Positions 8,320-64,000 of a DNA stretch of 64,000 bases are shown piece by piece (the stretch's first letter is position 1; each line of letters starts with the position of its first letter). The stretch lies in NCBI RefSeq assembly GCF_044704955.1, contig NC_091986.1, positions 191,580,001-191,644,000 of the forward strand, written 5' to 3'. The position numbers and the translations under genes were made by a program. This DNA comes from Pristiophorus japonicus. Its lineage: Eukaryota. The notes under the pieces were generated by a model that worked only from the letters and a program-made list of their open reading frames with translations, had not been told where the DNA came from and searched no databases.

Positions 8320-9165
8320 GGGCTCAATTTTGTCCAAAGCTGTTTTCTAGCATATTGCCAGAGTTACGCCCCTTTTTCTAGGCCAGAAATACTCAATATT
8401 TGTGCCAAGTTTCCCCACTGTATTTTTCAAAATTGCCACTGTGCGGCCTGTCCAGTCACCTCGCGGGGGGCGGGGGGTTGAGGCTGCTGTCTGCGCCGAA
8501 AAAATGATGTCGCCCTTCTGTGCGTGTGCGGTTAAAAAAAAGTTATGTTTTTGATATTCCTATGGGCGCACATGCGCACTATGGCTCCTGGTCTGCATTC
8601 GGCCATTTTTAAAGAGCCAGTTGTGTATGTGAGAACCTTGAGTGCTGTGTAAGAACATATGAAAAATCGGAGCTGCAATACAAGATGCAACATCGTGCAA
8701 GGACCAAGATTTTCTTACAGGATGAAGTGGAGGCACAAGTTGCTGTGATTGAGAACAGATGGCAGGAGCTGTACACCAGCAGAGGTCACACAAAAGTTCC
8801 ACCCAAAAAAGTGAAGAAACGCTTGGAACCAAGTTGCAGAAGATTACTATGCAATGGTGACCACCCTGAGTTCTGGAGGCCAGTGCAAAAAGAAGTGACA
8901 GGACCTTGGTCAAGTAGTTAGTGTAAGTAATATTTTCATTTATTCAATACAATTGTAATTTAAATCTGACCAGCTGTATGTCCCACTCAGCAGAAAGACA
9001 CCCTCTCTAAAAAGTTGTATTTTCATCTTTGCAGAGGAAAGTGGCACATAACAAAAGGGAAAGAACTCGAACAGGAGGAGGCCTGACAAATCTGCACCCA
9101 CTGACACCCTTGGAAGAGAGCGTCGCTGCTTTGATGGGTCCTGCCTGGAGAAACGCAGAAGCTCA
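8320..9165 (+). mobile_element. Truncated Harbinger-like element (Myb-gene side)
   Basis: Begins with TIR-like GGGCTCAATTTTG (compare 42346), then a CpG-rich promoter-like segment and the Myb-like pseudogene; no second TIR found. Confidence 0.7.
8685..9165 (+). pseudogene. Harbinger Myb/SANT-like (NAIF1/MSANTD-type) gene remnant; exon 1 8685-8922, intron 8923-9034, exon 2 from 9035
   Basis: MQHRARTKIFLQDEVE..IENRWQEL..KKR/WNQVAEDY..QCKKK*QDLGQVVS|GTAAGT...TTGCAG|RKVAHNKRERTRTGGG..LTPLEE; one frameshift and one stop; homologous to 51411-53089. Confidence 0.85.
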
Positions 9166-42345: not shown

Positions 42346-43425
42346 GGGCTCAAAATTGGCCAGGAGTTGCTCCATTTTTTTGGAGCAATTTGATTTTTTT
42401 CTAGAATATCTTAAAAATCGCCATTTTGCACATTCAATTTGCACCAGTGTAAGTGAATTAGTTACGATTTTTTTAGTTTCGTTTAGTTTTTCTCGAAAGG
42501 GCGCATTACCAGCCAGTTCTGGCCATTTAGGCTACTTTGGCCAGCTAATAATTACTCCAAATCTACTAAGGCCAACGTATGTGGCCACTTGTGAAAACAC
42601 TTGCGGAGAGTTAAGAAATCGGCGCAGGTAGGTACATCGGAGGCCAGCGGAACTTAATGACTTGACGAAAGAATGTGAATAGGATCAAACAGCTATACAG
42701 GACATCATATGACAAACTTCGCAAAGTTAATTTACTATACAGCAGAAGCATTCATGGAAGCTTAAACTACAAAAATAAAAGAAGTAAAAGATAGTTGAAT
42801 TAAATTGCCCTAATTTCACAACTAATTTAAACAACTATTTGTTTGCAATGATTATACTGGGCCAGAATTAAGCCCATATTATCTAAATAAAGTCTACATC
42901 AATAAATAAGATATTCTGTGTTCCTCCGTCACTTATGTTTTTCTGTCACAATAGCACCAGGTAAATAGGCTTGACAAATGGTCACCGCTATTCACAAGAG
43001 ACAAAACATAGTTACATCATTTTTTCAAAATATCCAAATAAAAAATAGAAGTAAGCACGTCCTACCCTACTTTCACCTTCAGCCCGGGAAAGCAGCGGGC
43101 CGGTCTGTGCGGTAGGCCACTCGGCCTGGGATAGGGGCGGGACGCACCAGCAACCGGTGTATGATGATGATGATGATGATCGGGTCCCACGCTGCAGCAC
43201 GCACACTGAGAGGCTGGGGGTGAGGAACTACACTCCAACGCGCATGTACAGACGTCCCGGCACTGTTTTCAGCGCGGGACGCTGGCTCCGCTCCCGACCC
43301 GACTGGCCACGCTGCGCGAAGACCCGGGAGAGGCTGGACAGCGACAAAAGTGGGGAACAATTTTTTCGGAGCACTTTACAACACAAAAGCGGCGCATCTC
43401 TGGTGGGTGGGCCAATTTTGAGCCC
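42346..43425 (+). mobile_element. Non-autonomous Harbinger, subfamily C
   Basis: Perfect 16-bp TIRs GGGCTCAAAATTGGCC / GGCCAATTTTGAGCCC; flanks AAA / ATA inside a CR1 (CATAGAAT)n tail; arms homologous to subfamilies A and B. Confidence 0.88.
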
Positions 43426-47547: not shown

Positions 47548-49797
47548 TCATAAGAAAAAGGAGCAGGAGTAGGCCATTCGGCCCCTCATGGCTGATCGTA
47601 TACCTCAACTCCACTCTCCTGCACTATCCCCATATCCCTTGATTCCCTTACTATCCAAAAATCTATCCATCTCGGTCTTGATGATAGTCAACCACTGAGC
47701 CTGCACAGCCCTCTGGGGTAGAGAATTTCAAAGATTCACCTCCCTCTGAGTGAAGACATTTCTACTCATCTCAATCCTAAATGGCCGACCCCTTATTCTG
47801 ATACTGTGACCCCAGATCTGGACTCTCCAGCAGGGGAAAAAACATCCTCCCTATATCTACCCTATCGAGCCATGTAAGAATTTTGTATGTTTCAATGAAA
47901 TCACACTTCATTTTTCTAAGCACTAGAGAATTTAGGCCTAGACTATTCAATCTCTCCTCAGGACAATTCCCCCATCCCAGGAATCAGTCTGGTAAACCTT
48001 CGTTGCACTCTGTCTACGGCAAGTATATCCTTCGTTAGGTAAGGAGACCAAAACTGTACACAATACTCCAGGTGCGGTCTCACCAGGGCCCTATATAATT
48101 GCAGAAGGACATCTTTACTCTTATACTCAACATACCATTTACTTTCTTAATTGCTTGCTGTACCTGCATGTTAACTTTCAGTGATTTGTGTACAAGGACA
48201 CCCAGGTCCCTCTGAAAACCAACATTTCCCAATTTTTCACCATTTAGAAAAATACTTCGTTTTTCTATTTTTCATACCAAAGTGGATAACTTCACATTTC
48301 TTCACATTATATTCAATTTGCCATGTTCTTACCCACCACTCACTTAGCCTGTCTATATCCCCTTAAAACCTCTTTGCTGCATCCTCACAAAGCTAGGTGG
48401 GAATGTAAATTATATAATCAGCAAAGTTGGATATATTACATTTGGTTCCCTCATCCAAATCATTAATATAGATTGTGAATAGCTGAGGCCCAACACTGAT
48501 CCCACTCGTTACACCCTGCCAACCTGAAAATGACCCGTTTATTCCTACTCTCTGTTTTCTGTCCGTTAACCAATCCTCAATCCATGCTAGTATATTACCC
48601 CCAATCCCGTGAGCCCTAATTTTGTTCAATAACCTCTTGTATGGCACCTTATTGTATGCCTTCTGAAAATCCAAATACACCACATCCACTAGTTTCCCCC
48701 CCCCCCCCCCCCCCCCCCATCTATTCAGCTAGTCACAACCTCAAAAAAAACTCTTAACAGATTTGTCAAACATGGGGGTAGAAATTCCGATGTCTCCAGG
48801 CCCGTACGAAGTTTCTATGGACCCGGGAAGGCATCGGAAAAGTCTGTTTTCAGCGCGCAATGCGCATGCGCTGAAAACCAACTTTTCTGATCAAGCTTGA
48901 CAGATCGTAGCCAGATTGCAGATTGGGAGCGAGGACATCTGTATGGGCAAGTTTGCGATATTTACGCATATCTTGCCCAGCAAATGTCCTCAAAAATCTT
49001 GCTCCTGAAAAAGCAGGCGCATAGCCTATTTTTACAGGCGCAAGTGTTTTAAAACACACACATAATAGAAATAAAGTTATGAAAACATAATTTGTTGTTA
49101 AAAACCCTCCCCAAATGGTAAGTTTATTTTACGGCATAATTAAAAAAACTTAAAATATATATTTTCCCAATTTTTTTAAGACATTAATAACTTTAATTTA
49201 AATGAATCTTGAATATGTAGTGTATATTTTCTATTTTTATTAGTGTTTTGGGTGTTTGGGGGGGTGGGGTTTCTCATTCAAAGTAATAGGAATTTCGGAC
49301 TTACGGAACTCCTATAACTATCAATGAGAATATACTATACCTGATCAGCTGCCCAGAGCCATGTGACTCCAGCTCCAGGCCTGTGCACGTCCCAACGTGC
49401 ACGCGCTGCGACACACAGGGAGAGGAGGCCTGTGGATCGGAGCTTCAGGTAGGTATGCATTTTTTCTCAAATCTAGTCGAACGCCTGGGAGAAGGAGAAA
49501 GCGGAATTTCTACGCCATGATTTCCCTTTCAGAAATCTGTGTTGATTCTGCCCAATCCCTATTGTTATTTTCTAAGTGTCCTGTTACCACGTCCTTAATA
49601 ATACATTCTAGCATTTTTCCCTACTACTGATGTCAGGCTAACTGGTCTGTAGTTCCCCGTTTTCTCTCTCTCTCCTTTCTTAAATAGCGTGGTTAGATTT
49701 GCTACCTTCCAATCTGCGGAAACTGTTCTAGAATCTATGGAATTTTGAAAGATGACAAGCAGTGCATCCACTATCTCTGGCCACCTCTTTCAAAACC
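47548..49797 (-). mobile_element. CR1 (RT to 3' tail), interrupted by a MITE at 48775-49516
   Basis: VDVVYLDFQKAYNKVPYKRLL..QLFTIYINDLDEG..ISNFAD; ENYRPVSL upstream; CATAAGAA tail. Confidence 0.92.
48775..49516 (+). mobile_element. Harbinger-like MITE, subfamily F
   Basis: ATG | GGGGTAGAAATTCCG ... CGGAATTTCTACGCC | ATG; removing the insert and one TSD restores CR1 GTCAAACATGATTTCCC. Confidence 0.9.
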
Positions 49798-50814
49798 CTA
49801 GTATGTATTCAATATTCAGGAAGGATAGACAGAAAGGAAAAGGAGGTGGGGTAGCATTGCTGGTTAAAGAGGAGATTAATGCAATAGTAAGGAAGGACAT
49901 TAACTTGGATGATGTGGAATTTGTATGGGTAGAGCTGCGAAACACCAAAGGGCAGAAAACGTTAGTGGGAATTGTGTACAGACCACCAAATAGTAGTAGT
50001 GAGGTTGGGGATGGCATCAAACAGGAAATTAGGGATGTGTGCAATAAGGGTACAGCAGTTATCATGGGTGACTTTAATCTACATATAGGGCCCAAGTTTC
50101 CACATGATTTGCGCCTGATTTTTAGGAGCAACTGGTGGAGAACGGACTATCTTAGAAATCGCAATTCTCCACATTTTTTTTTCTGCAGTTCTAGTCAGGT
50201 AGAACAGTTCTACTTTGTAACAGAATTTTTTCTTCAAAAGTGGGCGTGTCCGGCCACTGATGCCTGATTTGAAAGTTTCCACAGTGAAAACGTACTCCAA
50301 ACTAAAGTAGAATGGAGCAAGTGAAGATTTTTGTAGAACTGAAAAAACCTGTTGTACACATTAAAAAATCAGGCGCAGGTTACAAATTGGGCGTCCAGAA
50401 CGAGGTGGGGGGGGGAGGGGCGGGGGAAGGGAAGTCATTAAATTCGACAATAAATCCTTATTTATACTTATACAAATATTATACAAATAAATCCAACCTG
50501 AATAAACATTTATAAGCAAAGAAAAGATTAAATAAACCATCTTCCTACCTGTGTGAAAGTGCTTCAGTCAGCTCAGCGATGTTCCCGTGAACGGGAGGCA
50601 GGGGCAGGTAGGCAGGCAGGCAGTAACGAGGCAGCAAGCAGCCTTCCACTTGAGGTGGAAGCCTTAGTCAGCTCAGCGATGTTCCCGCGAACGGGAGGGA
50701 GGGGCACGCAGGCAGCCAAAGATACAGCAGCAGGCTTCGAGCTGTAAGGGGGACTGAGGCCATTTGGACAGGGAGAGGCAGCCACATCGACAGTTTTATA
50801 TTTACATTTGCAGA

Positions 50815-51054
50815 ATGGGTGCTGCATTGTCAACACCACATATTATTATGCAATGGTTCGCCATCAATTCACTGCATAGGAGAGAATTGATTAGAGCTCA
50901 CCGCAACAGGAACGTCGTAGCCCGTAGGTTGATGGGCAGGAGACCTTACCCACGTCGACAATATCGAACCAGGCGCTCGTACCTGGACATGAGCGAGGCT
51001 GATTGTGTGAAAAGGCTGTGTTTTCGCAGAGAAGTTGTCACTGAGTTGTGTTAA
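50815..51054 (+). pseudogene. N-terminus of a HARBI1-like Harbinger transposase; DDE domain absent
   Basis: MGAALS..RRPYPRRQYRTRRSYLDMSEADCVKRLCFRREVVTELC* resembles the conserved pre-HTH segment of PIF/Harbinger transposases; runs abruptly into AT-rich DNA. Confidence 0.7.
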
Positions 51055-51157
51055 TGGAACATGAAACAGTTTTAATTAAAAATTATTTTATTGAAAAGTT
51101 AACGTCACTCTAATAAAATATTTGTTGTATCAAACTATACTTTTTAATATGACTCTT

Positions 51158-51385
51158 GAAGATCACTTAAAAACTTTAAGATCACTTATAAACTTGTAAA
51201 GTTACAAAAGTTACAAAACACTTTGTGTGAAAAATTTTACACTCTATGATCACTTAAACTTCAAGATCACTTTTTAGATGCAAAATTAAATAATTTACAG
51301 AATGTGCGAGCATTTACACTATAAGATCACTTAAAAACCATAAGATCCCTTATAAGTTGTAACATAACAAAACTTACAAAACAAT
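51158..51385. repeat. Degenerate AT-rich repeats (about 6 GATCACTT motifs) between the convergent genes
   Basis: GATCACTT recurs at about 51161, 51180, 51248, 51265 and 51324, with GATCCCTT near 51344; poly(A)-signal-like hexamers on both strands at 51086-51117. Confidence 0.7.
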
Positions 51386-51410
51386 TTCAATTTGAAAAAC
51401 GCTACTACAG

Positions 51411-53089
<1,679 letters not shown>

Positions 53090-53309
53090 TGCAAAGTTGA
53101 ATTGGCACTTTTTTTTCTCCAAACACAGTCCTTAATTTGCAGGCACAGGTACAGCAAGTTTAGCAGTGAAAAGCTGAACTCACTGATTTCAGCAGGTGAT
53201 TTCTTCAGCAGTGCTGCTAAAAGCACTCCCTCACACACAGAAATATCAATAAAATTAAAATACAAGCCTTTGCAGGGATCCAAGAACAAATCTTCACTTT
53301 TCTGCAGCA

Positions 53310-53480
53310 CTTTCTAAAATGGCCGAGTGCCAATGTTTTTTTCACACTGCGCGTGCGCGAACGCTCCAACGCGCACGCGCAGCGTTGCCGGCAGGAAAAA
53401 AAACTAATTTAAATAGTACCCGCCCCCTCCCACTTACAAAATCGGCGCGAGTGTAGGCTCTGCCCCCCTGGGTGCCGTGC
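53310..53480 (-). promoter_or_regulatory. Putative CpG-type promoter of the Myb-like gene (GC box, NRF1-like, YY1-like motifs)
   Basis: Minus strand order GGGGGCGGG, GCGCGTGCGCG, CGCGCACGCGCA, CGGCCATTTT upstream of ATG 53089; same order precedes ATG 8685. Confidence 0.45.
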
Positions 53481-56299
53481 CAGGCAGACAAGGAGCTGCA
53501 GAATGCTCCAGAATCGCGATTTTTTTTTTTAGGCGCCGTTTTAGGCGCGAGAAACGGACGCCCAGCTTGGAGGGGCGCCCGTTTTTTATCGTGTGGAAAC
53601 TTGGGCCCATAGAGTGGGCTAACCAAACTGGTAGCAATACTGTGGAGGATGATTTCCTGGAGTGTAGAAGGGATGGTTTTCCAGACCAATATGTCGAGGA
53701 ACCAACTAGAGAGCTGGCCATCCTAGACTGGGTGTTGTGTAATGAGAGGAGATTAATTAGCAAACTTGTGCGAGACGCCTTGGGGAAGAGTGATCATAAC
53801 ATGGTAGAATTCTTTTAGGATGGAAAGCGACACAATTAATTCAGAAACTAGGGTCCTGAACTCAAGGAAAGGTAACTGATGGTTTGAGGCGTGAATTGGC
53901 TAGAATAGACTGACAAATGATACTTAAAGGGTTGACAGTGGATAGGCAATGGCAAACATTTAAAGATCACATGGATGAACTTCAGCAATTGTACATCCCT
54001 GTCTAGAGTGAAAATAAAATGGGGAAGGTGGCTCAACTGTGGCTAACAAGGGAAATTAAGGATAGTGTTAAATCCAAGGAAGAGGTATATAAATTGGCCA
54101 GAAAAAGCAGCAAACCCAAGGACTGGAAGAAATTTAGAATTCAGCAGAGGAGGACAAAGGGTTTAATTAAGAGGGGGAAAATAGAGTAGGAGAAGAAGCT
54201 TGCCGGAGCATAAAAACTGACTGCAAAAGCTGCTACAGATATGTGAGGAGAAAAAGATTAGTGAAGACAAACGTAGGTCCCCTGCAGTCGGATTCAGGTG
54301 AATTTATAATGGGGAATAAAGAAATGGCAGACCAATTGAACAAATACTTTGGTTCTGTCTTCACGAAGGAAGACACAAATAACCTTCCGAAAGTACTAGG
54401 GGACAGTAGGTCTAGTGAGAAGGAGGAACTGAAGGATATCCTTGTAAGTCAGGAAATTGTGTTAGGGAAATTGAAGGGACTGAAGGCCGATAAATCCCCA
54501 GGGCCTGATAGTCTGCATCCCAGAGTACTTAAGGAAGTGGCCCTAGAAATAGCGGATGCATTGGTGATCATTTTCCAACAGTCTATCGACTCTGGATCAG
54601 TTCCTATGGACTGGAGGTTAACACCACTTTTTAAAGAGGGAGGGAGAGAGAAAGCGGATAATTATAGACCGGTTAGCCTGACATTGGTGGTAGGGAAAAT
54701 GTTGGAATCAATTATTAAGGATGAAATAGCAGCGCATTTGGAAAGCAGTGACAGGATCCAAGTCAGCATGGATTTATGAAGGGGAAATCTTCAGATATAG
54801 TGCCTTTGGCTTTGACTTTTTTCCTAATTTTCAGTTATTTTAGTCAATGATGCCATATTACCTTTGTCTCTCCGTCTCTTCCTGACCTACTCTGCTTATT
54901 TTTACCCAAAACTCTGCTCTGCTCTCGACCCTTGAAATTTCTCTTGCTGCTTTTAAATGTATTATTTCTTGAATCCTCCCACCTCTTTCTCCTGCCCTCC
55001 CCCCAATAGTTTAAAGCCCTGTCTACTGCTCTAGTTATTCGATTCATATAGAGCTATTTTCCCTGAAAGTGGTTGCATAATATAAATAGGTTGATGTCTT
55101 TTGAACTCCTGGATATATTAATGTCTTGAAACATTTCTAAAGATCGGTTATGCTGGAATTATTTTTACCTACGTGAAGCATAGCAATTCACACAGATCTT
55201 CTGGAATTTTTTGAGGATGTAACTAGTAGAGTGGACAAGAGAGAACCAGTGGATGTGATGTATTTGGACTTTCAAAAGGCTTTTGACAAGGTGCCACACG
55301 AGAGATTGGTGTGCAAAATCAAAGCACATGGTATTAGGGGTAATATACTGATGTGGATAGAGAACTGGTTGGCAGACGGGAAGCAGAGAGTCAGGATAAA
55401 CCGGTCCTTTTCAGAATGGCAGGCAGTGACTAGTGGAGTGCCACAGGGCTCAGTGCTGGGACCCCAGCTCTTTACAATATACATTAATGATTTGGATGAA
55501 GGAATTGAGTGTAATATCTCCAAGTTTGCAAATGACACTAAACTGGGTGGCGGTGTGAGCTCTGAGGGGGACGCTAAGAGGATGCAGGGTGACTTAGACA
55601 GATTAGGTGAGTGGGCAAATGCATGGCAGATGCCGTATAAGGTGGATAAATGTGAGGTTATCCACTTTGGGGGCAAAAACACAAAGACAGAATATTATCT
55701 GAATAGTGGCAGATTAGGAAAAGGGGAGGTGCAATGAGACCTGGGTGTCATGGTTCATCAGTCATTGAAAGTTGGCGTACAGGTGCAGAAGGCGGTAAAG
55801 ACGGCAAATGGTATGTTGGTCTTCATAGCTAGGGGATTTGAGTATAGGAGCAGGGAGGTGTTACTGCAGTTGTACAGGGCCTTGGTGAGACCTCACCTGG
55901 AATATTGTGTTCAATTTTGGTCTCCTAATCTGAGGAAGGACGTTCTTGCTATTGAGGGTATGCAGCGAAGATTCACCAGACTGATTCCCGGGATGGCCGG
56001 ACTGAGATATGAGGAGAGACTGGATCAACTGGGCCTGAGTGCGGCGTGGCAGAACTTAAAGAGGAGGACCCACTGCCGTGGCCGCTGTCTATCAATTTTC
56101 GCCAGATGACTTCCTGATCAGCCGGCAAGACAGTGCCCCTGGGTTCGGCTGGGCTGCCAATGGGCAGCCTGGAACCCCTCTTGGATGCCAGGCCACTCTC
56201 TGGGTGAAGAAGTTTCTCCTCATCTCGGTCCTAAATGGCTTACCCCTTATCCTTGGACTGTGACCCCTGGTTCTGGACTTCTCGAACATTGGGAACATT

Positions 56300-57799
56300 G
56301 GGCCCAAGTTTCGGGCCGCGCCTAGAACGGCGCAGCCCCGACCTGGACGCCCGTTTTTCACGCCACAAAGTGCGTCTAAAAAAAACTTCCAGATTCTCCG
56401 GCTCCCTGCTGGTCCTCTGGCCCTCGGCTCGGTGCAGCAGGAGCTGTGGGGGGCGGAGCTAGGTCCCTGCGCTGAAAACAGTGCCGGGACCTCTGCACAT
56501 GCGCGCTACAGTGCAGTAGCTCCAGGTGCCCAAAACTGTGTGGGAGGGGCTGCGTGCATAAGACTCGTCCCACGCCCAGCTCCTGCTTCCTCCCGACCCG
56601 ACTCCCACTCCACCCCCCCCCCGCCCCCGAACCGACCTCCCTCCTCTTCTCTTCCGCCGCCCCCCCCCCGGACCGGCTCCGACCCGCGCTCCCCCCGACC
56701 CGACCCGACCCAACGCCACCTACCTGTAAATCTGGTGCTGGGGACGGGCCCTGCCCGAGGTCTTGGGCCCAGCCACCGGGCCCAGCCCATTCAGCCTCCC
56801 TGCCCCCCCCCCCCTGCCTTTCTCCTTCCCCCCCACCCCCTTCTCCTTCTCCTTCCCCCCCTTCTCCTTTCTCCCCCCCCTTCTCCTTCTCCTTTCCCCC
56901 CCCTTCTCCTTCTCCTTTCCCCCCCCTTCTCCTTCTCCTTTCCTCCCCCTTCTCCTTCTCCTTTCCCCCCCTCTCTTTCCTCTCCTTTCCCCCCCTCTCC
57001 TTTCCCACCCCCCCCCTCTCCTTTCCCACCCCCCCCTCTCCTTTCCCACCCCCCCCTCTCCTTTCCCACCCCCCCCCTCTCCTTTCCCACCCCCCCCTCT
57101 CCTTTCCCACCCCCCCCCTCTCCTTTCCCACCCCCCCCTCTCCTTTCCCACCCCCCCCCTCTCCTTTCCCACCCCCCCCTCTCCTTTCCCACCCCCCCCT
57201 CTCCTTTCCCACCCCCCCCCTCTCCTTTCCCCCCCCTTTCCCCCCCTCCTCGTCCTCATCAGGAACACAGACAGTGACACACTGAGGGGGGCATCCCAGC
57301 GCGCTGTTGGAGGGCTCCCGGTGCTGCAGTCGATAAGTAGAAAATTTTTTATTTCTTGATTTAAAAAAAAAATTAGTTCTTATTAATTTTTTTTGATTGA
57401 TTTATTGATGTTTTTATCATTTATTATTGATGATGGCTCTTTATTTGTAAAACTGAAGTGTTTAATGTTTGTAAACTTCCCTTTAAATGCCCCCCCCCAC
57501 CATTCCCTACGCCTGATTTTCTAAGGTGTAGACAAGGTTTTTTTTCGAGCGTACAAAAATCTTCACTTACTCCATTCTAAGTTAGTTTGGAGTAAGTTTT
57601 CACTGCCGAAACTTTGAAAACAGGCGTAAGTGGCCGGGCACGCCCCCTTTTGAAAAAAAAATTCTGTTCCAAAGTGAAACTGTTCTAACTGACTAGAACT
57701 GGAGCAAACTAAATGCCGAGAATTTGAATTTCTAAGATACTCCGTTCTACACCAGTTGCTCCAAAAAATCAGGAGCAACTGAGGCCGAAACTTGGGCCC
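56300..57799 (-). mobile_element. Non-autonomous Harbinger, subfamily B (1500 bp)
   Basis: ATT | GGGCCCAAGTTTCGG ... CCGAAACTTGGGCCC | ATT. Confidence 0.95.
56803..57250. repeat. C/T-rich minisatellite (~20-bp units, two variants) inside the MITE
   Basis: (C)nTTCTCCTTCTCCTTT units followed by (C)nTCTCCTTTCCCA units. Confidence 0.95.
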
Positions 57800-59026: not shown

Positions 59027-60146
59027 GGGCCCAAGTTTCCACATGATTCACGCCTGATTTTTAGGAGCAACTGGTGGAGAACGGACTATTTTAGAAATCG
59101 CAATTCTCCACATTTTTTTTTCTGCAGTTCTAGTCAGGTAGAACAGTTCTAGTTTAGAACAGAATTTTTTCTTCAAAAGGGGGCGTGTCCGGCCACTGAC
59201 GCCTGATTTGAAAGTTTCCACAGTGAAAATGTACTTCAAACTAAAGTAGAATGGAGCCAGTGAAGATTTTTGTAGAACTGAAAAAACCTGTTCTACACAT
59301 TAAAAAATCAGGCGCAGGTTACAAATTAGGCGTCCAGAACGAGGAGGGGGGGAAAGGGAACTCATTAAATTCGACAATAAATCCTTATTTATACTTCTAC
59401 AAATATTATACAAATAAATCCAACCTGAATAAACATTTATAAGCCAAGAAAAGATTAAATAAACCATCTTCCTACCTGTGTGAAAGTGCTTCAGCCAGGG
59501 AGAATTNNNNNNNNNNNNNNNNNNNNNNNNNNNNNNNNNNNNNNNNNNNNNNNNNNNNNNNNNNNNNNNNNNNNNNNNNNNNNNNNNNNNNNNNNNNNNN
59601 NNNNNNNNNNNNNNNNNNNNNNNNNNNNNNNNNNNNNNNNNNNNNNNNNNNNNNNNNNNNNNNNNNNNNNNNNNNNNNNNNNNNNNNNNNNNNNNNNNNN
59701 NNNNNNNNNNNNNNNNNNNNNNNNNNNNNNNNNNNNNNNNNNNNNNNNNNNNNNNNNNNNNNNNNNNNNNNNNNNNNNNNNNNNNNNNNNNNNNNNNNNN
59801 NNNNNNNNNNNNNNNNNNNNNNNNNNNNNNNNNNNNNNNNNNNNNNNNNNNNNNNNNNNNNNNNNNNNNNNNNNNNNNNNNNNNNNNNNNNNNNNNNNNN
59901 NNNNNNNNNNNNNNNNNNNNNNNNNNNNNNNNNNNNNNNNNNNNNNNNNNNNNNNNNNNNNNNNNNNNNNNNNNNNNNNNNNNNNNNNNNNNNNNNNNNN
60001 NNNNNNNNNNNNNNNNNNNNNNNNNNNNNNNNNNNNNNNNNNNNNNNNNNNNNNNNNNNNNNNNNNNNNNNNNNNNNNNNNNNNNNNNGGGGAGAGGGGG
60101 GGGCGTCGGGTCGGGGAACAGGAGCGCGGATCGGGTCATAGGGCCC
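59027..60146 (+). mobile_element. Harbinger subfamily A left arm, N-gap, truncated right side
   Basis: 59027-59495 nearly identical to 50088-50567; after the gap a G-rich internal segment, then only GGGCCC. Confidence 0.88.
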
Positions 60147-60554
60147 ATAGTGTTGACATTTAGTGATGTGATGATTAATGAATAGTGCAGTAAGTTAATC
60201 GTGACCTGTATTTGATAATTAATCCGTTGGTCAATCATTACAATTACTGGAGCAAATTAATTCAAAGGTTTAACCAATATACAAAAGTAATTTAGAAATA
60301 GTAAAACACAATTGAAAGTTTCGGAGACGGGACATGAACATTTCGGTGGTGGCTGAAATCTCTGCCATCCATTATCGGGTCAGTGGGAATCCTTCCAACT
60401 TGGGGTTCTGTTTAATTCAGGCTACTATAGCTGTTTAAGGAGCTGGGGTGAAATGCAAACAGAAAATGCAATTTAGGGATATATTAAGATTGCCGAGAGC
60501 CCTGTCTTTTTGTGAACAAACTCATAGAGTTGCAATTGTGCCTCACGTTTCATT

Positions 60555-60802
60555 GAACAACGTTACCCTGGAAACCTAAATGCTTCGAGTGTTGGGCATG
60601 CGCAGAACGGGCATTATTTTTAAGGCGAAAAAATTTAGCTCCGTCCTTAAAAACGGAGGTATTTTAAGGCTACACCAAAATTTAAAAAACTTCTGGCAAA
60701 ACGTAGACTTTTTTTTGCTGTTATTTCGTCCTAAAAAACAGCCGTTAATTGGAAATAACACCAAAAAACTGAGCTATTTTTCAATGTGGAATATCTGGAC
60801 CC
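60555..60802. mobile_element. Possible Harbinger-like terminal arm fragment
   Basis: CpG/A-tract-rich arm ending TGGAATATCTGGACCC; X-box-like GTTACCCTGGAAAC and GCATGCGCA motifs; no partner TIR. Confidence 0.4.
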
Positions 60803-61309
60803 TTGTCTCTGCTTCCCCTCATACATAATTGTTGCTGCATTTTTTTTCCATAGCTGTGTAAACCAGTCTTTCCTCTGCAACAAACATAGCTAGGTCCTGT
60901 TTATAGTATATATTGATCCAGTCTATGTAATATAGGATTATTCCAGTCATTGAAACATTGATTAGGATAGGTAAAGGATTTTTAGTGTAATCTGAGGTCA
61001 AGAATTAAAGCTTTCCTTTCCTATCAGTGGCCCTATTTTAGGTTGTGGCTTTGAGCAGCAATGGGAAAGAAACTTTGTCCTCCGCTGACGATATAATTAG
61101 TAGTAAAGGTAAAAAGAGAATTGCAAATACTGGGATTAAAACAGAAAATGCTGGTTCATTAGCATCTTGGGGAAAGATGGGTTATACCTACAATACTTAG
61201 AATACAAATTTTTCATCAGTACAATCGGTAACCTAGCTGGTTTTGTAGTTTTCCCAGGACACTTGACCATTGTGGTTTCTGTCGCATATTTACCCGGCAT
61301 CATTATTAG

Positions 61310-62195
61310 TGATCTTAATGACCAAGTCGTGACTATCAGTTTATCCTCGGTAGTGGAGAAGCTTTTAGAAATGATAATCAGGGACAAAATTAACAGTCAC
61401 TTGGATAAGTGTGGATTAATTAAGGAAAGCCAGCACTGATTTGTTAAAGGCAAATCGTGTTTAACTAACTTGATTGAGTTTTTTGATGAGCTAATAGAGA
61501 GGGTTTATGAGAGCAAAGCGGTTGACCTGGTGTACATGGACTTCCAAAAGGCGTTTGATAAAGTGTCACATAACAAGCTTGCCAGCAAAGTTGAAATCCA
61601 TGGAATAAAAGGGACAGTGGCTGCATGGATACGAAATTGGCAGGAAACCGAGTAATGGGGAACGGTTGTTTTTCGGACTGGGGGAAGGTATACAGTGGTG
61701 TACCCTGGGGTCGGTACTTGGACCACTGCTTTTCTTCTTGTATATTAATGACTTTGACTTGGACTTGGGTGTACAGGGCACAATTTCAAAGTTTGCAGAT
61801 GACACAAAACTTGGATGTATAGTGAACAGTGAGGAGGATAATGATAGACTTCAAGAGAACGTAGACAGGCTGATGGAATGGGTGGACACGTGGCAGATGA
61901 AGTTTAATGCAGAAAAGTGTGTTGGTAGGAAGGATGAGGAGAGGTAATATATTCTAAAGGGGGTGCAGGAACGGAGAGACCTGGCGGTATATGTGCACAG
62001 ATCATTGAAGGTGGCAGGGCAGGTTGAGAAAGCAATTTAAAAAAAAAAACATACAGGATCCTGGGCTTCATAAATAGTGGCAGAGAGTACAAAAGTGTGG
62101 AAGTTATGATGAAGCTTTATCTGGTTCGGCCACAACTGGAGTATTGTGTCCAATTCTGGGTACCTCACTTTCCGAAGGGTGTGAAGGCCTTGGAG
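61310..62195 (+). mobile_element. Decayed CR1 RT fragment
   Basis: KGKSCLTNLIEFFDE, YMDFQKAFDKV, SVLGPLLF..YIND, SKFADDTKLG, RPQLEYCVQFW. Confidence 0.92.
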
Positions 62196-64000
62196 CATAA
62201 GAACATAAGAATTAGGAACAAGAGTAGGCCATCTAGCCCCTCGAGCCTGCTCCGCCATTCAACAAGATCATGGCTGATCTGGCCGTGGACTCAGCTCCAC
62301 TTACCCGCCCACTCCCCATAACCCTTAATTCCCTTATTGGTTAAAAATCTATCTATCTGTGATTTGAATACATTCAATGAGCTAGCCTCAACTGCTTCCT
62401 TGGGCAGAGAATTCTACAGATTCACAACCCTCTGGGAGAAGAAATTCCTTCTCAACTCGGTTTTAAATTGCCTCCCCCGTATTTTGAGGCTGTGCCCCCT
62501 AGTTCTAGTCTCCCCGACCAGTGGAAACAACCTCTCTGCCTCTATCTTGTCTATCCCTTTCATGATTTTAAATGTTTCTATAAGATCACCCTTCATCCTT
62601 CTGAACTCCAATGAGTAAAGACCCAGTCTACTCAATCTATCATCATAAGGTAACCCCCTCATCTCCGGAATCAGCCTAGTGAATCGTCTCTGTACCCCCT
62701 CCAAGGCTAGTATATCCTTAAGTAAGGTGACCAAAACTGCACACACTACTCCAGGTGCGGCCTCACCAATACCCTGTACAGTTGCAGCAGGACCTCCCTG
62801 CTTTTGTACTCCATCCCTCTTGCAATGAAGGCCAACATTCCATTCGCCTTCCTGATTACCTGCTGCACCTGCAAACTAACTTTTTGGGATTCATGCACAA
62901 GGACCCCCAGGTCCCTCTGCAACACAGCATGTTGTAATTTCTCCCCATTCAAATAATAATCCCTTTTTACTGTTTTTTTTTCCAAGGTGGAGGACCTCAC
63001 ATTTTCCGACATTGTATTCCATCTGCCAAACCTTAGCCCATTCGCTTAACCTATCTAAATCTCTTTGCAGCCTCTCTGTGTCCTCTACACAACCCACTTT
63101 CCCACTAATCTTTGTGTCATCTGCAAATTTTGTTACACTACACTCTGTCCCCTCTTCCAGGTCATCTATGTATATTGTAAACAGTTGTGGTGCCAGCACC
63201 GATCCCTGTGGCACACCACTAACCACCGATTTCCAACCCGAAAAGGACCCATTTATCCCGACTCTCTGCTTTCTGTTAGCCAGCCAATTCTCGATCCATG
63301 ATAATACATTTCCACTGACTCCGCGTACCTTTATCTTCTGCAGTAACCTTTTGTGTGGCACCTTATCGAATGCCTTTTGGAAATCTAAATACGCCACATC
63401 CATCGGTACACCTCTATCCACCATGCTCGTTATATCCTCAAAGAATTCCAGTAAATTAGTTAAACATGATTTCCCCTTCATGAATCCATGTTGCGTCTAC
63501 TTGATTGCACTATTCCTATCTAGATGTCACGCTATTTCTTCTTTAATGATAGCTTCAAGCATTTTCCCCACTACAGATGTTAAACTAACCGGCCTATAGT
63601 TACCTGCCTTTTGTCTGCCCCCTTTTTTAAACAGAGGCGTTACATTAGCTGCTTTCCAATCCGCTGGTACCGCCCCAGAGTCCAGAGAATTTTGGTAGAT
63701 TATAACGAATGCATCTGCTATAACTTCCGCCATCTCTTTTAATACCCTGGGATGCATTTCATCAGGACCAGGGGGTTTGTCTACCTTGAGTCCCATTAGC
63801 CTGTCCAGCACTACCCCCCTAGTGATAGTGATTATCTCGAGGTCCTCCCTTCCCACATTCCCGTGACCAGCAATTATTGGCATGGTTTTTGTGTCTTCCA
63901 CTATGAAGACCGAAGCAAAATAATTGTTTACGGTCTCAGCCATTTCCACATTTCCCATTATTAAATCCCCCTTCTCATCTTCTAAGGGACCAACATTTAC
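62196..64000 (-). mobile_element. Young CR1 LINE (ORF2 RT and 3' UTR), extends past the window end
   Basis: ORFs 63527-63958, 62891-63481, 62746-63012 and 62414-62746 tile one ORF2 with a few frameshifts; tail (TTCTTATG)n; almost identical to 28429-28972. Confidence 0.96.

Follow-up and report, generated by a model that had tools for sequence, protein, structure and literature searches.

A very probably non-autonomous copy of a two-gene Harbinger-like transposon in a LINE of Pristiophorus japonicus

In the portions of PMC4482050 (Han et al. 2015) available to us, the PIF/Harbinger group is described as two-gene elements with a mean length of ~4.1 kb and terminal inverted repeats (TIRs) that are mostly under 60 bp and begin with A or G, and it is defined by duplication of the target triplet TWA. 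The same portions recognize six groups in the wider PHIS superfamily, among them NuwaI (CWG), NuwaII (C(TNA)G, brackets enclosing the duplicated triplet), Pangu (ANT, with a second open reading frame (ORF) that has no known motif) and ISL2EU (AT, with a YqaJ second ORF). The two-protein mechanism of the zebrafish element Harbinger3_DR is summarised in the accessible text of PMC9179366 and PMC9392472. Here we describe a related element in a 64,000-nucleotide stretch of the Pristiophorus japonicus genome (NC_091986.1, 191,580,001 to 191,644,000; hereafter the window, in whose coordinates all positions are given). The element spans 3521 bp (50088-53608) and is very probably a non-autonomous copy of a two-gene Harbinger-like (PHIS) transposon lying in a long interspersed nuclear element (LINE). 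Some four fifths of the DDE transposase gene are gone, and the three-exon Myb/SANT gene is frameshifted. Since both genes are broken, the element is likely to have been mobile only with the proteins of intact copies.

The ends of the element are well defined. The left TIR (50088-50103, + strand) matches the right TIR (53593-53608, - strand) at 16 of 16 positions, and at 19 of 20 when extended to 50107, bearing out the perfect 16-bp repeats of the initial annotation; the 16-mer would be expected ~2e-5 times in the window by chance. An ATA adjoins each end (50085-50087 and 53609-53611, both +). Upstream lies the endonuclease part of the host LINE (49806-50084, +; Exo_endo_phos, E = 5.6e-06), which we take to be of the CR1 group, and downstream its decayed continuation up to the reverse transcriptase (53612-55737, +; RVT_1 at 55177-55737, E = 5e-20). 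When the element and one ATA are taken out, 113 + 68 codons of the Exo_endo_phos frame are open. The restored frame that had been annotated thus stands, but it does not by itself establish the target-site duplication (TSD): the duplication is 3 bp long, and removing 0, 3 or 6 extra bases keeps the frame open each time. The sequence is present in public sequencing runs under two organism labels. We compared the window with contigs from four of these runs, of 8 listed (labels X1, X5, X6 and X7); break and joint figures given here hold among the 32 records listed. Contigs of all four runs, from other copies of the LINE, join both LINE flanks with a single ATA, and these empty sites fix the TSD as ATA. 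The ends, the duplication and the empty site confirm that the element and its insertion are real. Further upstream, the LINE contigs diverge from the window sequence at ~49805, and a LINE piece in the opposite orientation (49595-49789, -) adjoins the 5' break of the host LINE there; this piece is either a 5' inversion or a nested copy.

The transposase remnant lies on the + strand in an ORF of 79 codons plus stop (50815-51054) that by itself matched no Pfam family. A search for longer proteins with the remnant returned one match among 21 candidates, the P. japonicus protein P0001 (UniRef100_UPI00398E9A59, named 'putative nuclease HARBI1'), which is identical at 76 of 79 positions to the ORF over its residues 119-196. 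P0001 runs on into a DDE_Tnp_4 domain (E = 1.2e-36) in which the triad D295, D371 and E407 is intact, and its transposase frame is open over 405 aa; it is the longer relative that links this N-terminus to a DDE domain beyond VVTE, as had been predicted. A domain search of P0001 at E up to 0.1 returned no helix-turn-helix family, the motif expected of transposases in the strict PIF/Harbinger group. The first 118 residues of P0001 are a different, unrelated Myb-like sequence, and the gene model joins this upstream exon one residue before the transposase methionine. These residues probably reflect a gene-model fusion at the AG that precedes the ATG. At the locus studied here, a pyrimidine tract and AG ahead of the ATG (50795-50813, +) are likely to be the splice acceptor of an intron in the 5' untranslated region (UTR).

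Two contigs, X6 record 17 and X7 record 26, stop fitting at 51045 from opposite sides, which places an internal deletion junction at 51045-51046. The remnant is therefore 77 codons long (50815-51045, +; 96% identity to P0001 119-196), ends at VVTE and has no catalytic residue, and the terminal LC and stop (51046-51054) come from the far side of the junction. Accordingly, the 80-codon transposase-like N-terminus first annotated is indeed transposase, but its frame holds 79 codons plus stop, and the last two codons (LC) do not belong to it. Judged from P0001, the deletion would have removed ~329 transposase codons. A search of the window for P0001 residues 197-523 yielded nothing convincing; the best candidate for a C-terminal transposase remnant in the window (E = 0.066) was spurious and was rejected.

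The partner gene lies on the - strand. Exon 1 (52847-53089, -; 81 codons, open) encodes a Myb/SANT-like domain: the Myb_DNA-bind_5 match sought for it was found with E = 2.8e-11 and 43.6 bits against a cut-off of 21.7. This exon matches four P. japonicus proteins, among 8 candidates, at 85-89% identity, with P0002-P0004 at 85-88%. Intron 1 (52736-52846, -; 111 nt, GT-AG) is an exact gap in the alignments of the related P. japonicus proteins P0002-P0005. A joint that skips it (52735-52847) occurs in three contigs of run X5 and in none of the records listed for the other three runs; it corresponds to the spliced form, and it is no proof of expression because the library type of X5 is not on record. 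No RNA run is listed among those containing the sequence, which has no bearing on expression either way. Exon 2 (52586-52735, -) is frameshifted, with ~13 nt missing near 52595, a size judged from relatives: at the end of this exon all 8 have extra residues reading TAQAG-P/T/S/L-x-x-E. X5 record 12 ceases to fit at 52596. After this frameshift, the splice model of the gene terminates at 167 aa. Intron 2 (52452-52585, -; 134 nt, GC-AG) was placed by homology and is therefore a predicted intron. Splicing from a GT that lies 4 nt further downstream would put exon 3 in frame, yet it leads to a stop at 248 aa and conflicts with the relatives, and we rejected this GT as the natural donor. Exon 3 (51490-52451, -), delimited with contigs and relatives, encodes an acidic stretch, Pro/Ser/Thr repeats and a helical C-terminal region. 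Compared with other copies it lacks 2 nt at ~52166 (all four runs) and 1 nt at ~51493; the related protein P0125 ends in TPP and a stop, which fits the frame change implied by these indels. Beyond the gene, the AT-rich spacer (51046-51410, 25% GC) is mostly Myb 3' UTR, with AATAAA at 51112 (+) and 51092 (-).

The Myb C-terminal region had 8 matches among 1.84 billion proteins, and several of them connect exon 2 or the Myb domain to it. All four exon-1 matches and all eight C-terminal matches are P. japonicus proteins, and wherever exon junctions are covered they are the same, so at the level of sequence the relatives confirm the predicted three-exon structure. Thus, the three exons that had been annotated on the - strand are present and the domain in exon 1 is genuine, but no intact reading frame remains: the gene is broken in this copy by three frame-breaking indels (about 13, 2 and 1 nt missing). 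With the transposase deleted and the Myb gene broken three times, both genes are non-functional here. The small indels are most likely younger than the insertion. In the ESM Atlas the best score for the C-terminal region was 0.79, to unnamed clusters, and a model of transposase residues 119-460 in complex with the C-terminal part of the Myb protein, built without alignments, scored 0.02, which speaks neither for nor against an interaction. Separately, four P. japonicus gene models (P0129, P0130, P0131 and P0132: a kinesin, NDUFB8, an RNA exonuclease 1 homolog and one unnamed) run into exons of the Myb family, three of them joining it at the start of exon 2. Such fusions could be errors of annotation, or else exons captured from copies in introns.

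Two other elements in the window carry the 5' arm (50088-50572, +) at 95.6-96.9% identity (96.9% and 96.2% over aligned columns). The first (28166-29824, +) is a non-coding derivative of the same family with an AAA duplication; it shares the 3' arm at 92.8% and has a later, retroposon-like insertion of 540 bp (28429-28968) that is 94% like 62193-62732. The second (59027-59506, +) is a 5' arm of the same family that ends in an assembly gap (N run 59507-60088), and a right end sought for it at 60089-64000 was not found. Four more elements (56300-57799, 19669-24767, 13754-15021 and 42346-43425) share the 5' arm at 61-84%, and those at 56300 and 19669 share the 3' arm at 65-67% over about 120-135 bp; on these identities they are sister families. 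Each probably relied on autonomous partners of its own, an idea with which an older copy of the Myb gene at 8685-9157 agrees. The initial annotation had the ends shared almost exactly with 28166 and 59027 and more distantly with the other four, and close sharing is indeed limited to 28166 and 59027. Likewise, the element accounts directly for two of the surrounding miniature inverted-repeat elements, 28166 and 59027 (the length of the latter being hidden by the gap), but not for the sister families. Variants inside the element occur in many distinct contigs (for example, 69 of X1 at 51742 and 62 at 51855), indicating that it is multi-copy. Copies of the family differ by 3-7%, which gives no sign of current activity, so the description 'recently active' is not supported; slow evolution in sharks is reported in the accessible part of PMC8455134.

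By analogy with Harbinger biology, the Myb protein would bind subterminal DNA of the ends, bind the transposase and carry it into the nucleus. Cleavage at the TIRs and insertion with a 3-nt stagger would be the work of the transposase. The source of both proteins would have been intact copies, such as the one behind P0001, and mobilization of the non-coding 28166 copy and of 59027 would have depended on the same proteins. Two features of the arms are candidate Myb binding sites on sequence grounds. One is a perfect 13-bp inverted repeat with a 10-nt loop in the 3' arm (53347-53382), kept in the 28166 copy. The other is the word GCGCCT, which each 350-bp end contains twice, where 0.13 occurrences per 350 bp would be expected; the word was picked after looking and is a lead only.

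Collectively, the deletion junction at 51045, the link through P0001 and the Myb_DNA-bind_5 match support the internally deleted two-gene Harbinger-like transposon that had been proposed. The two outcomes that were to refute it, the lack of a longer copy joining this N-terminus to a DDE domain and the lack of a Myb/SANT match, did not occur. Several observations weigh against it. Among the sequences compared there was no full-length copy carrying both genes intact between its TIRs, nor a contig reaching across the whole stretch. The transposase link is one database protein, whose gene model begins with a fused and unrelated Myb-like exon, and among the listed records only two contigs break at the 51045 junction. 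Finally, none of the four complete elements in the window has a TWA duplication.

A rather unlikely but credible alternative, compatible with a non-autonomous copy of a two-gene transposon and differing from it in the timing of the deletion, is that the 3.5-kb deleted form was itself amplified as a 'Myb-only' subfamily, whose members once provided the DNA-binding partner in trans, this copy having decayed later. Such a subfamily is possible because the deletion takes the catalytic region, ends a little beyond the polyadenylation signal of the Myb gene at 51092 and spares the whole Myb unit; moreover, single-gene variants are reported in the available parts of studies of sea kraits (10.1101/2021.06.13.448261) and C. 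inopinata (PMC13668399). However, the X6 and X7 contigs at 51045 do not cross the junction, and none of the 32 listed records bridges it with 31 letters on each side. A chimera, in which fragments of a transposase and of an unrelated Myb-like gene were captured by a MITE-like shell, is very unlikely. In its favour, the Myb and DDE genes were never seen intact in one sequence, and a variable, GC-richer stretch with a 53-bp imperfect repeat (50573-50760) is unlike the interior of 28166, from which it is absent. By contrast, a second internal deletion form, in which nearly all of both genes is gone (joint 50844-53088, skipping 2243 nt, in contigs of three of the four runs), links the region of the transposase with that of the Myb gene in an unchanged arrangement, and the older Myb copy at 8685-9157 likewise starts 365 bp inward of a TIR-like end (8320). 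Descent is also the simpler explanation for a convergent pair of remnants that come from exactly the two expected genes. That the locus is a domesticated host gene pair like HARBI1 and NAIF1, as the names of P0001 and of P0004 ('nuclear apoptosis-inducing factor 1-like') might suggest, has a negligible probability; as far as this copy is concerned, the empty sites and the deletion refute it. Such genes are single-copy, syntenic and free of TIRs and TSDs, whereas here intact TIRs and a TSD lie inside a LINE, copies are many and divergent, both genes are broken, and 33 of the best 120 transposase matches come from one species.

We return to the two-gene transposon and its place among described groups. 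Exact triplet duplications flank all four complete elements in the window (ATA, AAA, AAT and CTT; probability by chance ~1e-7), 42346 is flanked by AAA and ATA, and single ends adjoin TAT, AAT and AAC; this triplet sample is small and mixes several families. Within the closest family, again a small sample, TWA occurs at none of the three sites (ATA, AAA and TAT). CWG, the NuwaI duplication, is found in none of the four complete elements, and ANT, the Pangu duplication, in one of the four and at none of the three closest-family sites. C precedes the triplet at 4 of 6 sites and G follows it at 4 of 5; at the closest-family sites, T(ATA)G, C(AAA)G and C(TAT)?, the flanks partly fit NuwaII and the triplets do not. 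These data suggest a loose target preference for A/T-centred triplets.

The family has the DDE_Tnp_4-type transposase of the PHIS superfamily through P0001, this copy retaining 77 codons, and it has TIRs with a short duplication (mostly 3 bp in the superfamily). It resembles the PIF/Harbinger group in having a Myb/SANT second gene (broken here) and TIRs of 16-20 bp that begin with G; its predicted full length is at least 4.5 kb, near the group mean given above. It differs in its duplications, so PIF/Harbinger in the strict sense is set aside. NuwaII, which includes Harbinger-2_CPB and Harbinger-2N1A_XT, likewise comprises vertebrate two-gene elements, but no triplet here is TNA, a comparison made by target site and not by transposase. 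Pangu differs in its duplication, mostly not matched here, and in its second ORF, which here carries a Myb domain; ISL2EU is set apart by the 3-bp duplication and again by the Myb second ORF. We therefore filed the element in the PHIS (Harbinger-like) superfamily and in no group, because no complete element has TWA, CWG or TNA and ANT occurs in one of four. Like Harbinger3_DR, the family pairs a transposase with a Myb-like partner; unlike the flanks here, which have no such consensus, the target of Harbinger3_DR is a long palindrome centred on CWG, according to the accessible part of PMC3016246. Harbinger-Snek of sea kraits and Harbinger-1M_cIno also have large internal deletions that leave one gene, and short non-coding derivatives with the same ends, as far as the available descriptions go; here, by contrast, the remaining gene is broken too. 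P0001 is 96% identical over the remnant and likely belongs to the same family, but it has an open frame and an intact triad and is annotated as a host gene.

Several side observations concern the window at large. The older Myb fragment (8685-9157, +), which the initial annotation lacks, comprises exons 1-2 with frameshifts and a stop and is 80% identical to the focal gene. Between the arms of 13754-15021, 19669-24767, 56300-57799 and 28166-29824 lies GC-rich or CT-rich minisatellite. Of eight N runs, seven fall in the 19669 element (20736-24096) and one cuts 59027; long 'ORFs' over N runs were rejected as gap artefacts. An Rfam scan of 49000-55000 gave no matches.

With P0001 residues 119-523 we found 620 protein matches at E up to 1e-20, of which the best 120 are considered here. 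A FastTree tree of these 120, rooted by hand, contains a clade of 65 (support 0.977) made up of 33 P. japonicus proteins, 31 from other cartilaginous fish and 1 unnamed, with no named bony-vertebrate protein; Callorhinchus P0108 groups with it without support. The catalytic triad is intact in 17 of the 33 P. japonicus proteins and in 10 of 32 other cartilaginous-fish proteins among these 120. A subset of 62 proteins contains small clusters, many of them lacking the triad, whose members from different shark orders, or from sharks and rays, are 74-92% identical: P0018/P0024/P0048, P0010/P0015/P0016/P0019/P0020/P0021, P0047/P0050, P0017/P0026, P0012/P0014 and P0025/P0027, most with catalytic residues replaced. 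These clusters look like candidate elasmobranch-specific domesticated genes, slow evolution or transfer being the alternatives. We tentatively raise the possibility that the family belongs to a cartilaginous-fish Harbinger-like lineage with a loose A/T-centred triplet, outside the six PHIS groups, which keeps a catalytically intact transposase in the sawshark. Repeated domestication of this lineage in sharks and rays may have produced at least five host genes in addition to HARBI1, some of them triad-less.

Harbinger elements are already on record for sharks, and the interest first assigned to this copy was too high. The available records list PIF-Harbinger for the whale shark, and the accessible text of PMC12498223 gives Tourist/Harbinger as the commonest DNA transposon type in the grey reef shark; a 2022 survey (PMC9179366), in its available part, reports none in the elephant shark and calls for other cartilaginous fish to be studied. 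Our literature search, mostly at the level of listings, turned up neither an account of this family nor one of domesticated copies specific to sharks. The start of the TIR is absent from three text supplements of PMC4482050, whose sequence files may not be among them, and the accessible part of PMC4255032 has no Harbinger passage. Judged from this literature, the element is an ordinary dead copy of a known kind, from a family that is probably undescribed. Its analysis lays out how a two-gene Harbinger-like family is built in a shark, and the non-TWA duplications suggest that targets are chosen less strictly than the textbook rule has it. Transposon copies probably underlie many shark annotations as 'putative nuclease HARBI1' or 'NAIF1-like'. 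Of greater interest are the shark-ray transposase clusters, which would add lineage-specific domesticated genes if synteny confirms them.

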